Positions 45,668-50,921 of a stretch of 64,000 nucleotides of DNA are shown here, piece after piece. Origin of the DNA: an uncultured Pseudomonadota bacterium (GTDB taxonomy: Bacteria > Pseudomonadota > Alphaproteobacteria > Rs-D84); assembly GCA_946613885.1 (NCBI GenBank), contig CAMOGA010000006.1, positions 4,309 to 68,308 on the forward strand, read 5' to 3'. A model generated the notes under the pieces. That model was not told the origin of the DNA. It was given only the letters and a program-made list of their open reading frames with translations, and ran no database searches. Both the position numbers and the translations under genes were made by a program. Position 1 is the stretch's first letter. Every line of letters starts with the position of its first letter.

Positions 45668-47680
45668 ATGGTTGTAAAAAAAATTGTTTCTGAAATATCT
45701 AATCGGCGTAAATATGTGCATGGCAAGAAAGGTAAACTGGAAACACCACATAAAAAATTAAAACAATGGCAACCAGATGGTAAAATGGGCAAGTTTTCCC
45801 GTATAGCAGGTTTGGGCGCAATAGATTTGTCGTGGTTTTTATTTTGTCTTGGAAAATATACTGCCAAAGATTTGAATACTATTTTGTTGGATAACAAAAT
45901 AATAGATACTATACAGAAAAAACATAAGAATTTGGAAATACAAGATTCTGATTCTAAATTTAAACAATTTTTTAAAAAAATTGAAAAATCTAATCCGCGC
46001 ATGGCTGCTACATTAAAGTTATGGATGTTGTACAGTTTATTAACAATTATGTCAATTGGCGGAATTAAATTGGCACAGCGTGATAAAGATAATAGCGGTA
46101 AACAGGTCAAAACTGAACAAGTTATTGATAACAACAACCCTAAGGATGTTGTTGAATCGGCGATAATATATGAAGAAGAAGAAAATTCACAAAAAGTAAT
46201 TGATGACACTAAAAAGACAGGTGAATCAAAAATTTCAGATGATGTAAAAACACCAAATGTTGTGACTTATGATATTTCAGATGTAAATTTTGCGGATAAT
46301 TTTTTAGATGATAATTGGGATGATATAGTTGTAAGTTTGCTGGAATTTGAAACGTGGCGTGACAAGGCAAAATTGCATTCTGGCGAATCGCGTTATACCT
46401 ATGGTCCGGGTATAACTTGGGTTTATACCAAAGATAAAAATGGAAAACTTAGACAACATGCATGTGTCGGTGATTATAAGCAACGGGCATCAAATTTTAG
46501 TGTTGAACAAAAATTGCAACAGACCAGATATCATTATGAATACGAGACATTACCCGCTATAAAAAGAAAATTAAAAAAATACGGGTTTACAGAAATTACA
46601 GATCAACAAATGTTGGGATTGTTTATTGCCGGATATCAATTGCCTGCTAAATTAGATGACGGTAATTTTTCTACAAAATTAGATAATGGTAAGTATGAAA
46701 AAGGTAAATATATAGGAATCGTTCATAAATTATCTGATGCAGGATCAAATGTGCAAAAGCAGGTTGATTCTTTTATTGCAGGAAAAGAGGTTCGCGAAAA
46801 ATGGCGTGAAGGTACAAATAAACGTCGTTGGTGGTGTGCGATGATTTATATGGGGTATATAACCACGGACGATTTAATAAATCTGGACAGGGATGCTTTT
46901 TCTTCAATCAATATTAATACAATTTTAAAAAATGGACATTTTGTATATGATGCCACCACCATAGAGTATGTTTTGGCGCATGCTAATAATCCAAATAGAA
47001 ACTCTGTTAAAGATTTTATGAAAGAACGTAACATATCTATAAATAATAATTCTTCAAAGCATCAAAAAAACATTTCAAGCAATGCTGTGGAAAACCCATC
47101 AATGAAAAAAACAATTAAAGGGTTACAGGAATTTAAAAACGGTAATTATAAAATCGCAATTAAATATTATCAAGAAGCCATTGCTTTGGATGCCAATAAT
47201 ATGGAGGCATACAGCAGTTTAGCCTTATCATATAAAAAATTAGGCGACCAAACACATTCTATTGCTGATTATGAAAAAACAGCAGAAACAGTCAAAGCAT
47301 GCAATGCACAAATGAACCGTAATAGAAACTTATTACACGATCCAGATGTCAAGGCATCTACATATTACAATGCCGGTTTGGCGCGTGAAGAAATGGCAAA
47401 ATTGTATGAAAAAGATAACAATATAGAGCAAGCAATTGAAAATTATAACAAGGCCAAACAGAATTTTGAAACAGCATATGCCAACGCAGAAGAATTTAAT
47501 AGTTCAGAACGTATGACAATATATAAACAAGCGCAACAGCGCGTTGAGAAATCTGTCGAAACATTACAGATAAAAAACAATCAAACAAATAAACGTAATG
47601 CATTTGGCCAAGGAAAAACAAAATTATTAAATAAAATGGCTAATCAATATACGCGTAATACAGGTAATACCAAGGATTAA
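45668..47680 (+). CDS. Membrane-anchored hypothetical protein: lysozyme-like domain + TPRs
   Basis: TM LWMLYSLLTIMSIGG; TPR motifs (AIKYYQEAIALD..N.EAY..L, YYNAGLA); central domain shared with the next gene. Confidence 0.65.
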   Translation: MVVKKIVSEISNRRKYVHGKKGKLETPHKKLKQWQPDGKMGKFSRIAGLGAIDLSWFLFCLGKYTAKDLNTILLDNKIIDTIQKKHKNLEIQDSDSKFKQFFKKIEKSNPRMAATLKLWMLYSLLTIMSIGGIKLAQRDKDNSGKQVKTEQVIDNNNPKDVVESAIIYEEEENSQKVIDDTKKTGESKISDDVKTPNVVTYDISDVNFADNFLDDNWDDIVVSLLEFETWRDKAKLHSGESRYTYGPGITWVYTKDKNGKLRQHACVGDYKQRASNFSVEQKLQQTRYHYEYETLPAIKRKLKKYGFTEITDQQMLGLFIAGYQLPAKLDDGNFSTKLDNGKYEKGKYIGIVHKLSDAGSNVQKQVDSFIAGKEVREKWREGTNKRRWWCAMIYMGYITTDDLINLDRDAFSSININTILKNGHFVYDATTIEYVLAHANNPNRNSVKDFMKERNISINNNSSKHQKNISSNAVENPSMKKTIKGLQEFKNGNYKIAIKYYQEAIALDANNMEAYSSLALSYKKLGDQTHSIADYEKTAETVKACNAQMNRNRNLLHDPDVKASTYYNAGLAREEMAKLYEKDNNIEQAIENYNKAKQNFETAYANAEEFNSSERMTIYKQAQQRVEKSVETLQIKNNQTNKRNAFGQGKTKLLNKMANQYTRNTGNTKD

Positions 47681-47683
47681 ATT

Positions 47684-48748
47684 ATGAATATAAAAAATTC
47701 TAAATCTCAAAAACTTGGACCAAATATGCCGGAAAAATTAAAATTGTGGACGGCGTACGTTTTATTTGCCTGTATGTCGATTGGCGGAATTAAAATTGTA
47801 CAAAATTTAAATAATTCTAAATCTACCAGCACAGAATTAATCAAAGAACCAATACAAAATAATGAACCGCACATAGAATCTATGGCAGAACCACAAGGCA
47901 TAGGCGAGGGGATAACAGGTTTGTATGATGTTGCAGATTCAAATTTTAAAATAAATTTTATCAATGATAATTGGAATGCGATAGTCGCAGGATTGTTAGA
48001 ATTTGAAACGTATTTTGAAAAACCGCATTTGAACAGGGGTGAATCGCGATATACTTATGGCCCCGGTTTAACGTGGGTGTATATAGATGGAAAGCAATAT
48101 CCGTGTACCGGTAAATATAAAGTGATGGCGGATAATTTTTCATCAGAACAAATCTGGGATCAGGTAAAACAGCACTGTTTACGAAATGGCGAAGCATTGG
48201 ACAGAATCCAGACCGCATTGATAAAAAACGATTTTTCAGAAATATCACAAAAACAATTATTGGGATTGTTCTTTGCGGCATATCAAAGCCCCGGAGCAAT
48301 AGGGGGAATTATAAAACGTTTAAAAGAAGCGGGTGACGATGAACAAAAAATAGTGGACTCGTTTATAGCAGGACGTGAAATTAATCGTAAATGGCGTACT
48401 GGTACAAATAAACGTCGTTGGTGGTGTGCAATGATTTATATCGGAAAAATAACTGTTGATGATATATTATTTATGGACAGGGATGCCTTTACATCAATAA
48501 AAATCGATAAAATACATAAATCTGGACATTTTATAACTGATAATTCAACTGTCGATTATGCGCTGGACAGAAACAATTTTAATACAGAAACAGTTCAAGA
48601 ATTTATGAAATCTGAATCACAAAATATTGCATATCAAAAAATAAAGACATCAAATTTTAATCGTGGTATTCAAAAGATAAAAGAATTAAACAAACGTCAC
48701 AAAGAAGATATGTTTGTTTATACTGATAACGAACATACAATGGCCTAG
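47684..48748 (+). CDS. Paralog of the preceding gene without TPRs (lysozyme-like domain)
   Basis: Shared LLEFET, GESRYTYGPG.TWVY, GTNKRRWWCAMIY, DRDAF. Confidence 0.65.
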   Translation: MNIKNSKSQKLGPNMPEKLKLWTAYVLFACMSIGGIKIVQNLNNSKSTSTELIKEPIQNNEPHIESMAEPQGIGEGITGLYDVADSNFKINFINDNWNAIVAGLLEFETYFEKPHLNRGESRYTYGPGLTWVYIDGKQYPCTGKYKVMADNFSSEQIWDQVKQHCLRNGEALDRIQTALIKNDFSEISQKQLLGLFFAAYQSPGAIGGIIKRLKEAGDDEQKIVDSFIAGREINRKWRTGTNKRRWWCAMIYIGKITVDDILFMDRDAFTSIKIDKIHKSGHFITDNSTVDYALDRNNFNTETVQEFMKSESQNIAYQKIKTSNFNRGIQKIKELNKRHKEDMFVYTDNEHTMA

Positions 48749-48757
48749 GGGGATGAT

Positions 48758-50770
48758 ATGAAGGTTTATGTAAATACTGAAAATAAAACGTGGAAAAAAT
48801 ATAAAATTGATTTTGAAAAAATTGCCAATGCGGCTGTATCTGCTGTATACAAAGATTCTGAGGTATCAATTAATTTAATAGATGATAAACAAATTCACAA
48901 ATTAAATAAACAATATCGTGGCATCGATAAACCAACAAATGTTTTATCTTTTGAATTAGGAGATGATATTTTATTGGGTGATATTTTTATATCAATTGAT
49001 ACTGTTATCCGCGAAGCCAAAGAAGCCGGTATATCGGTTGAAGAACATGTTGCGCATATGGTTGTTCATGGTATGTTGCATTTACAAGGTTTTGACCATA
49101 TCAAAGATGCAGAAGCCAAAATAATGGAAAATAAAGAAATTAAAATATTAAAAAAATTGGGATATAAAAATCCTTATGCTGATACAGATGATATTGTGTG
49201 TGATAACAAATCGTGTTGTCCAGGACGGTTCATAACAAAATTAGAACAAATCAAAATTCGTGAAAACAGCATAACATGGTATTTATTGGCATCGGTTTTT
49301 GGAATTGTTGCGTCTTTTGGTTTTGCGCCGTTTTATTTGTGGTGGGCATCTATCATTGGTATCGGTGCAATGTATTGGATGATGGGGCAACAAAACAATA
49401 AAATCAGTTTTATAAAATCTTGGTTGTTGGCTTTTCCTTTTGGTGCGTTTTATGGAATTGCAATGTTTTGGTGGGTTTTAAATTCTATTTATGTAATTCC
49501 AGAATTAACGCAACAATTTGCAATCTGGACAATTCCAGGATTAATAGGTATTGGTTTGATTTGTGGAATAATATTATCTTTGCCGTTTGCGGTAATTCGT
49601 TGTATCCGGCAAAAACCGGCCAACAGGGCGATTTTATTCGCAGCGGTTTGGACATTGGTTTTGTGGGGGCGAGAATGGTTTTTAACTGGTTTTCCATGGA
49701 ATCCGATATCTAATATTACCATGAATATGCCAATGATTGTAAATTCAATGTCTCTGTGGGGGGCATTGGGGCTAAGTTTTATAATTATTGGATTAACTGC
49801 GTCATTTGTTGATATGTGTCGCGATAAGAAACCGGCAATATACGTATTCATTATGTATGTATTATTGTTCATTATTGGTTGTGGATACGGTTATTTCAAT
49901 ATGTATTTATCAGACAGACAAGATATTGACAATACACCAATTATCAGAATTATACAACCCGCAAAATCCGCTGTATACAAAATGCCAACTTCAAAACAAG
50001 AGGCACATGAAATCGCAAATCAAAAAATACGTGATTTGTTCATTTGGGCAACAAAAGACAATGAAATAATTCCTGATATAATCGTGTTCCCAGAAACATC
50101 ATATCCATATACAATTGTTGATGATGATTTTCCATTGGCGCGTATTTTGAATAATAATATTATCATGGGTGTAAATCATTATAATAATGGCAATATGTAT
50201 AATTCCATGGTGTTTGCAGATAAAAGTGGCAAGATAAAACATCTGTATAGTAAATCACACCTGGTGCCGTTTGGGGAATATCGTCCGTTTGGAGATATAA
50301 TACCAACACCTGGACAATTAAGTGCTGGAACAGGGGCAGAGGTTTTTTCTATCAATACGCAATACGGTGATTTTATCGTTGCGCCTGCAATTTGTTATGA
50401 AATCGTGTTTTCTGATTCTTTGATTCCATATAAATCAAATGCGAACGCAATCATAAATATTACAAACGATACATGGTTTGGAACAACGCCTGGGGTTTAC
50501 CAACATTTGGATATGGTACGCAGATACGCAATTGAATCAGGCCTGCCAATTATTCGTGCAAATTATTCAGGAATCAGTGGTTTTATCATGCCTGATGGAA
50601 ATGTGGAATCATATCTGCCGGTTGGTCAAAATGGGGCTTTGGACGGATATGTGTGGGGCGCACACACGACCCCATACAGGGCATTAGGACGTGATTTATG
50701 GATGGCGATTATTTTGATGTTTTCAATAATTGCTTTAATATCCATACGCGTATTTCCGAAGAAAGATTAG
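48758..50770 (+). CDS. ybeY-lnt: Fusion: rRNA maturation RNase YbeY + apolipoprotein N-acyltransferase Lnt
   Basis: YbeY KPTNVLSF, LGDI.IS, HGMLHLQGFDH; Lnt FPE, K.HLVPFGEY, ICYE, NDTWFG; one uninterrupted 670-aa frame. Confidence 0.9.
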   Translation: MKVYVNTENKTWKKYKIDFEKIANAAVSAVYKDSEVSINLIDDKQIHKLNKQYRGIDKPTNVLSFELGDDILLGDIFISIDTVIREAKEAGISVEEHVAHMVVHGMLHLQGFDHIKDAEAKIMENKEIKILKKLGYKNPYADTDDIVCDNKSCCPGRFITKLEQIKIRENSITWYLLASVFGIVASFGFAPFYLWWASIIGIGAMYWMMGQQNNKISFIKSWLLAFPFGAFYGIAMFWWVLNSIYVIPELTQQFAIWTIPGLIGIGLICGIILSLPFAVIRCIRQKPANRAILFAAVWTLVLWGREWFLTGFPWNPISNITMNMPMIVNSMSLWGALGLSFIIIGLTASFVDMCRDKKPAIYVFIMYVLLFIIGCGYGYFNMYLSDRQDIDNTPIIRIIQPAKSAVYKMPTSKQEAHEIANQKIRDLFIWATKDNEIIPDIIVFPETSYPYTIVDDDFPLARILNNNIIMGVNHYNNGNMYNSMVFADKSGKIKHLYSKSHLVPFGEYRPFGDIIPTPGQLSAGTGAEVFSINTQYGDFIVAPAICYEIVFSDSLIPYKSNANAIINITNDTWFGTTPGVYQHLDMVRRYAIESGLPIIRANYSGISGFIMPDGNVESYLPVGQNGALDGYVWGAHTTPYRALGRDLWMAIILMFSIIALISIRVFPKKD

Positions 50771-50921
50771 TATTTGGTAATCTGTGTTCGTCAATATTTT
50801 TTATAATAGATGCAACGGATGTATTGCGTTCATGTGCGATTTTTTGTAATACTTCAAAAAATTCTGATTCTAATGAAATACTGGTTTGGTGTCCTGATAA
50901 AGATACAGAAATCTTATGCAT
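50709..50921 (-). CDS. Ribbon-helix-helix protein (RHH_4-like)
   Basis: K.SVSLSGH.TSISLE.EF...L..IA......VA.II..ID....NLSS.IRV.IL. Confidence 0.85.
   Translation of the reverse strand: MHKISVSLSGHQTSISLESEFFEVLQKIAHERNTSVASIIKNIDEHRLPNTNLSSEIRVWILKQLLKTSK

Follow-up and report, generated by a model that had tools for sequence, protein, structure and literature searches.

A gene encoding YbeY and Lnt in a single frame

The window analyzed here is a stretch of 64,000 nucleotides (nt) on contig CAMOGA010000006.1 of assembly GCA_946613885.1, from an uncultured alphaproteobacterium of the GTDB order Rs-D84, and its plus strand carries, at positions 48758 to 50770, one uninterrupted open reading frame (ORF) of 670 amino acids (aa) in which the ribosome-maturation factor YbeY is joined to the apolipoprotein N-acyltransferase Lnt. 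The frame closes with a TAG stop at 50768-50770. Read directly from the sequence, a Shine-Dalgarno-like AGGGGGA (48747-48753, plus strand) stands 4 nt ahead of the ATG and overlaps the TAG stop (48746-48748) of the preceding 354-aa gene, which leaves 9 nt between that stop and the start of the fusion. Pfam detects three domains in the product, namely, YbeY (PF02130; residues 13-134; E value, 5.8e-38; 130.1 bits against a cutoff of 25), LNT_N (PF20154; residues 182-345; 68.3 bits), and CN_hydrolase (PF00795; residues 460-616; E value, 2.2e-22; 80.1 bits). Both halves also pass the curated cutoffs of the NCBIfam equivalog models: TIGR00043 (YbeY) scores 137.7 bits, a 3-fold excess over its cutoff of 45, and TIGR00546 (lnt) scores 232.8 bits against 132.9. 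With the Escherichia coli K-12 proteins as tblastn queries, the YbeY alignment ends at its residue 150 of 155, which corresponds to fusion codon 140, and the Lnt alignment begins at its residue 3, which corresponds to codon 158. Since both alignments are nearly full, both enzymes are complete, and the novel junction is restricted to residues 142 to 157, or about 16 aa. The original prediction, made from the sequence alone, had described an in-frame fusion with both catalytic sets intact; the single ORF, the Pfam and NCBIfam matches, and the presence of H104/H108/H114 and E446/K499/C546 bear this out, as do all of its other factual statements, and positions 48758 to 50770 are thus confirmed as a genuine in-frame YbeY-Lnt fusion gene.

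The two enzymes are known, but their combination in one protein is a new domain architecture, and the literature that we searched does not describe a YbeY-Lnt fusion. Public annotations of such proteins (P0019, P0075, P0086, and P0116) read only “apolipoprotein N-acyltransferase,” and since this name mentions Lnt alone, name-based inventories may score ybeY as missing from Rs-D84 genomes. Fusions of YbeY as such are not unprecedented, as the plant chloroplast version carries an additional HAD-like domain.

The two enzymatic domains

The YbeY domain, placed in the cytoplasm by the topology discussed below, occupies residues 1 to 141 (48758-49180, plus strand; PF02130 and TIGR00043). Motif alignment to E. 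coli YbeY locates its metal-binding His triad, H104-x3-H108-x5-H114, in HGMLHLQGFDH (49067-49099, plus strand), the counterpart of HGSLHLLGYDH in E. coli; the motif HMVVHGMLHLQGFDH, which starts at residue 100, contains all three His residues. In an alignment of 81 sequences, consisting of the window and 80 species-level loci described below, the triad is invariant (81/81), and some 38 additional YbeY positions show no change in 80 sequences whose identity descends to 42%. The domain is 49% identical to E. coli YbeY (residues 24-150), and a Foldseek comparison of the AlphaFold2 (AF2) model with E. coli YbeY (PDB code 1XM5) gives a TM-score by target of 0.75 at 39 to 42% identity. Moreover, nearly all strain variants in codons 41 to 128 are synonymous. 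With the stand-alone YbeY proteins of known structure (PDB codes 1XM5, 1XAX, and 1OZ9), it has in common the fold, the H-x3-H-x5-H metal site, and the full domain length; however, those proteins are small and soluble, whereas this version is covalently anchored to a protein with eight transmembrane (TM) helices. Hence, it is predicted from its sequence to be a metal-dependent endoribonuclease acting in the maturation of the 16S rRNA 3' end and in ribosome quality control.

The Lnt part opens with the cytoplasmic juxtamembrane segment FITKLEQIKIRENS (residues 158-171; 49229-49270, plus strand), which aligns from residue 3 of E. coli Lnt onward and is basic, with a helix predicted at residues 156 to 164 in the AF2 secondary structure. 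It is followed by the membrane domain with TM1 to TM7 (residues 172-385; 49271-49912, plus strand; PF20154), whose helices in the AF2 model span residues 172-186, 195-211, 218-244, 248-273, 287-308, 331-355, and 357-385. Next come the periplasmic nitrilase-like (CN-hydrolase) catalytic domain (residues 386-644; 49913-50689, plus strand; PF00795 and TIGR00546) and, finally, TM8 with a short basic cytoplasmic tail (residues 645-670; 50690-50767, plus strand; AF2 helix at 645-665 and tail FPKKD). Alignment to Pseudomonas aeruginosa Lnt (PDB code 5N6M) identifies the catalytic triad as E446 (50093-50095), K499 (50252-50254), and C546 (50393-50395), all encoded on the plus strand and invariant in 81/81 sequences. 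These residues lie in the contexts FPETSYP, YSKSHLVPFGEY, and ICYEIVF, respectively, of which PET, K..LVPFGEY, and CYE align to P. aeruginosa Lnt, and they correspond to E267/K335/C387 of E. coli Lnt. The eight TM helices, the periplasmic nitrilase-like domain, the E-K-C triad, and the CYE and LVPFGEY motifs are shared with the Lnt proteins of known structure (PDB codes 5N6H, 5N6M, 5VRG, 5XHQ, and 8B0K), and we predict from these sequence features that the Lnt part is an apolipoprotein N-acyltransferase. It is 23% identical to E. coli Lnt over its full length. Unlike the known versions, it bears a cytoplasmic N-terminal extension of about 157 residues with a second predicted enzymatic activity.

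The AF2 model, built on the 80-sequence alignment, has a mean predicted local distance difference test (pLDDT) score of 84.7 and a predicted TM-score of 0.73; both domains are modeled confidently, and only the tether between them is disordered (pLDDT of <50 at residues 143-152). Foldseek matches it to the E. coli and P. aeruginosa Lnt structures with TM-scores by target of 0.77 to 0.82. The nitrilase-like domain comes after seven of the helices and before the eighth, and Lys and Arg are confined to the loops that an N-in topology would place in the cytoplasm, consistent with a positive-inside pattern; the cytoplasmic stretch ahead of TM1 (residues 142-171) alone holds five of these residues. 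As the catalytic domain of Lnt must face the periplasm, the topology is therefore N-in, with YbeY cytoplasmic and tethered to the membrane. On this model, YbeY should be held by Lnt at the cytoplasmic face of the inner membrane, and the proposal that the fusion tethers the nuclease there agrees with the AF2 helices, the Foldseek matches, and the Lys/Arg distribution.

The Cys-rich tether and the continuity of the frame

Between the homology blocks of E. coli YbeY and Lnt lies a junction-specific tether, DTDDIVCDNKSCCPGR (residues 142-157; 49181-49228, plus strand), with the Cys cluster C148-x4-C153-C154-P-G (CDNKSCCPG; residues 148-156; 49199-49225, plus strand). A peptide covering NPYADTDDIVCDNK or SCCPGR would span the junction. 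Across species the tether ranges from 8 to 34 aa, with the minimum of 8 residues in L068 and L075. At least three Cys residues are present in 69/81 linkers, the C-x4-CC spacing in 48, and CCPG in 47; at the other extreme, 8 of the 81 linkers have at most one Cys. Judged from these sequences, the Cys cluster is a conserved invention born at the junction, but its reduction to one Cys or none in eight lineages indicates that it is dispensable for keeping the fusion. We found no Cys or His elsewhere in the 81 sequences that covaries with the cluster as a fourth metal ligand would. The cluster may bind a metal, respond to redox state, bind heme through its Cys-Pro, or have no such role.

The junction itself is crossed by Logan contigs from four runs of four studies, all ruminant gut metagenomes, which span positions 48700 to 49700 with no indels and no joints. 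These four independent assemblies, in which not a single letter is inserted or deleted, do not contradict the original prediction. The contigs contain 34 strain variants in this interval, 27 synonymous and 7 nonsynonymous, and within codons 147 to 179, which cover the tether and the start of TM1, all eight variants are synonymous; this pattern shows that the junction is translated in this frame and that purifying selection acts on it.

The same architecture, a further point on which relatives were to be consulted, is widespread among them. The best 120 protein clusters at 90% identity, drawn from ENA, JGI, NCBI, and Logan, where the total exceeds 120, all combine YbeY, LNT_N, and CN_hydrolase in 657 to 700 aa and are 70 to 99% identical to the window's protein. 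With one genome per GTDB species, 80 fusion loci were recovered at 42 to 75% identity, each as one tblastn high-scoring segment pair running through both halves; the ATG aligns with that of the window in 79 of them, the other locus (L012) being cut by a contig end. Among the best 150 of 41,055 hits to clusters at 50% identity, eight are full-length fusion clusters, the other full-length ones are ordinary Lnts of about 500 aa, and the remainder are fragments.

It had also been noted that no in-frame ATG with a ribosome-binding site precedes TM1 of Lnt, and this is indeed the case: the only start-type codons in frame at the window's junction are TTG135, GTG147, and TTG177, none with a Shine-Dalgarno-like motif, and in near-identical strains GTG147 becomes GTA and TTG177 becomes TTA. 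Across the 81 sequences, no in-frame ATG, GTG, or TTG and no Shine-Dalgarno-like motif is conserved between the end of YbeY and TM1, and three species (L001, L008, and L019) have no start-type codon at all in this interval. As no start signal is conserved, and as the frame is kept over tethers of 8 to 34 aa in 80 species, independent translation of Lnt appears unlikely from the sequences.

Phyletic distribution and origin of the fusion

The fusion is carried by “Candidatus Enterousia” and by uncultured members of the Alphaproteobacteria or “Rickettsiales” from the guts of ruminants, horses, humans, and termites. “Candidatus Enterousia” is a member of the GTDB order Rs-D84, in which genomes are mostly below 1 Mb (PMC12306168). 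In a maximum-likelihood tree of the Lnt part, 21 of 22 fusions fall in one clade (Shimodaira-Hasegawa-like approximate likelihood ratio test [SH-aLRT] support, 98), from which P0136 branches first, then P0129, and then the rest. From this phylogeny, we consider a single origin of the fusion most likely, in the ancestor shared by the reduced-genome Rs-D84/“Candidatus Enterousia” clade and its relatives.

The gene order of E. coli K-12, miaB-ybeZ-ybeY-ybeX-lnt on one strand (b0661-b0657), agrees with the conserved ybeZ-ybeY-ybeX(corC)-lnt operon that had been given as the background of the fusion; this ybeZYX-lnt operon has been described previously (bioRxiv 10.1101/2023.03.20.533420). Both enzymes of the fusion occur in the E. 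coli cluster as well, with order and orientation unchanged. In E. coli, however, YbeY (155 aa) and Lnt (512 aa) are two proteins, whereas in the window the ybeY stop and the lnt start are gone, the locus has neither ybeX (corC) nor ybeZ (phoH), and the 16-aa Cys-rich junction links the two parts. None of the 10 genes neighboring the fusion has a PhoH or CorC Pfam match, and tblastn with E. coli YbeX and YbeZ retrieved nothing from the 64-kb window or from 1.17 Mb of flanks of 91 related loci. In the deep-branching P0136 (L087/L088), P0129 (L091), and L075, miaB ends directly at the start of the fusion, and in the former two it is itself preceded by gatCAB. We take this abutting miaB to be a relic of the miaB-ybeZ-ybeY-ybeX-lnt order, and hence the fusion probably dates from the loss of phoH and corC.

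Neither the window nor the flanks of 79 Enterousia-type loci contain miaB. In the window, the side upstream of the fusion is instead taken up by mgsA, a ros/mucR gene, and the genes for a pair of paralogous membrane proteins. Downstream, it shares with L091 a convergent RHH_4 gene, followed by genes for 144, 169, and 302 aa and a gene for 223 aa; given these common downstream genes, the two loci are orthologous. The best reading is that a later upstream rearrangement replaced miaB in the Enterousia crown group. The fusion itself probably stems from a single collapse of the ancestral cluster in which phoH and corC were lost from the locus. The loss of corC had been put forward as the cause of the fusion, and to this extent it fits both the miaB relic and the lack of CorC and PhoH in the window and in the 1.17 Mb of flanks.

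Function of the fusion and alternative explanations

We propose that the one gene would give rise to a bifunctional inner membrane protein composed of a cytoplasmic YbeY, a short, flexible, and usually Cys-rich tether, and a complete Lnt. The membrane-anchored YbeY would work on pre-16S rRNA while still reaching 30S/70S particles, and Lnt would N-acylate apolipoproteins on the opposite side of the membrane, with both enzymes keeping their usual chemistry. In evolutionary terms, an ancestral miaB-phoH(ybeZ)-ybeY-corC(ybeX)-lnt cluster would have lost phoH and corC together with the ybeY stop and lnt start codons, after which purifying selection would have preserved the fusion, with a secondary reversal in a few lineages. 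Such a merger could ensure 1:1 coexpression and spare regulatory sequence in a shrinking genome. We regard this as the likely explanation, namely, a stable bifunctional membrane YbeY-Lnt of single origin by cluster collapse, retained by selection; the persistence of both activities, an uncleaved protein, and the order of the deletion events are the parts of it that we infer. Its simplest consequence would be an obligatory 1:1 coexpression and the placement of YbeY at the membrane, rather than a mechanistic coupling of the two pathways. Membrane-tethered RNases are known elsewhere in bacteria, e.g., RNase E, which is held by an amphipathic helix, and RNase Y, which is held by an N-terminal TM helix. 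Like them, the fusion would position an RNA-processing nuclease at the cytoplasmic face of the membrane; however, they possess simple anchors of their own, whereas the anchor of this YbeY is an entire unrelated and essential enzyme of the lipoprotein pathway.

Several points weigh against this explanation. The single origin rests on a quick tree, in which, when unconstrained, the P0139 fusion is placed apart from the others; an approximately unbiased test does not reject one clade with them, however (p, 0.65). The P0139 fusion (L086, 258-2231) is GC-richer, has 34% identity, and lies between an upstream MlaD gene and a downstream dksA; going by its sequence, it may represent an independent fusion event. 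Further, five stand-alone Lnts (P0134, P0138, P0146, P0143, and P0144) nest within the fusion clade, beside L075, and the fusion is therefore not indispensable. No ybeY was found near the stand-alone Lnts in the four loci fetched for P0134, P0138, and P0143, and from the tree these Lnts look like secondary fissions. At the level of expression, none of the metatranscriptome (RNA) runs searched contained the fusion gene, and the disordered state of the tether in the model makes cleavage within it possible.

The alternatives differ in how much of the protein they call into question. A missed stop, a frameshift between adjacent genes, or a chimeric metagenome-assembled genome might have created the ORF artificially, as the source is of the metagenome type and indel errors commonly produce false fusions. 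However, the four runs that cross the junction without an indel, the identical architecture in 80 species and more than 120 clusters from four sources, and the mere 16 aa between the homology blocks, which leave no room for a lost intergenic region, reduce the probability of such an artifact to a negligible level, and we consider it excluded. YbeY could alternatively be a decaying relic, i.e., an inactive N-terminal extension of Lnt whose job is done by another enzyme, given that degenerate domains are frequent in reduced genomes. This is very improbable for a domain that retains the His triad and some 38 other invariant positions down to 42% identity, that resembles E. coli YbeY as closely as it does and exceeds the TIGR00043 cutoff 3-fold, and whose strain variants in codons 41 to 128 are almost all synonymous. 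The one ORF might also yield two proteins, with Lnt or YbeY freed by internal initiation or by proteolysis of the linker, which is disordered in the AF2 model and has GTG147 and TTG177 in frame nearby. We judge this quite unlikely, for neither codon is preceded by a Shine-Dalgarno-like motif, both are replaced by GTA and TTA in near-identical strains, the position of start-type codons is not conserved across the 81 sequences (three species lacking them altogether), and the frame kept through linkers of variable length in 80 species points to selection for its continuity.

A different kind of alternative accepts the bifunctional protein and reads it as a Rosetta stone, in which YbeY and Lnt cooperate so as to couple late 30S maturation or quality control to lipoprotein biogenesis, with the Cys tether as a metal, redox, or heme sensor regulating YbeY. 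The two genes are operon neighbors in E. coli (bioRxiv 10.1101/2023.03.20.533420), the fusion persists down to 34 to 42% identity, and the junction, which arose de novo, has gained the C-x4-CC motif conserved in 48/81 sequences and is under purifying selection. On the other hand, the membrane would separate the two active sites; the tether, with its pLDDT below 50, varies between 8 and 34 aa, has lost its Cys residues in 8/81 sequences, and shows no covarying Cys or His; Lnt stands alone in five nested lineages, and the four loci fetched from among them have no ybeY in the vicinity; and gene fusion is to be expected in genomes below 1 Mb. On balance, we find this cooperation unlikely. One version of it, that YbeY normally acts at the inner membrane beside Lnt and that the C-x4-CC-P-G motif is a metal, redox, or heme switch that adjusts ribosome maturation or quality control according to envelope state, strikes us as speculative and rather improbable; within it, the motif could, for example, act as a “cysteine switch” on the catalytic metal of YbeY. 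If true, a membrane-side YbeY next to Lnt would explain the ybeY-lnt synteny of Proteobacteria. Mechanistic coupling of ribosome and lipoprotein maturation in general seems equally doubtful to us: a flexible linker of variable length and the resplitting of the genes are as compatible with a merger that is tolerated or slightly beneficial as with true coupling. Of the interpretation in the original prediction, support extends to the fusion itself, to the tethering of YbeY, and to the probable origin, whereas a functional coupling of the two maturation pathways is conjecture.

The stable, membrane-tethered bifunctional protein that we favor bears on more than its own lineage. YbeY is a near-universal but poorly understood factor of ribosome maturation, and its linkage to corC and lnt in Proteobacteria is without an accepted explanation. 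The natural fusion suggests that YbeY can fulfill its essential function under a permanent tether to the inner membrane of as few as 8 residues, and this would narrow down where models can place late 30S maturation and quality control. Tests of membrane-localized YbeY in E. coli would find a ready-made construct in it, and it provides a clean example of the collapse of an operon into a multifunctional gene during genome reduction.

Neighboring genes

In the four loci fetched for the nested P0134, P0138, and P0143, the stand-alone Lnt has as its upstream neighbor a gene of about 165 to 178 aa with no Pfam match (L084, 1102-1626; L085, 1040-1537; L089, 3868-4404; and L090, 519-1016), which occupies the place of YbeY. 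It was considered as a split-off ybeY and rejected, as it has neither a Pfam hit nor a tblastn match to E. coli YbeY. The one version that was read, that of L084, encodes a Cys-rich, secreted-looking protein. A type II CRISPR-Cas9 locus lies 2 kb downstream in both L084 and L085.

Directly upstream of the fusion in the window are tandem paralogous genes for membrane-anchored proteins on the plus strand, one of 670 aa with tetratricopeptide repeats (45668-47680) and the other the 354-aa gene (47684-48748) that ends 9 nt before the fusion, with which the pair is probably cotranscribed. The two share a domain, GESRYTYGPG...KRRWWCAMIY, without a Pfam match. They are missing from the related L083, where mgsA adjoins the fusion. 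On the downstream side, the RHH_4 gene (50709-50921, minus strand; 70 aa) belongs to the context and not to the fusion, with which it is convergent and whose last 62 nt (50709-50770) it overlaps. This overlap, along with the genes for 144, 169, and 302 aa (minus strand) and 223 aa (plus strand), is kept in L081 to L083, and the same overlap and downstream genes recur in the distant L091, where the fusion protein has an identity of only 40%.

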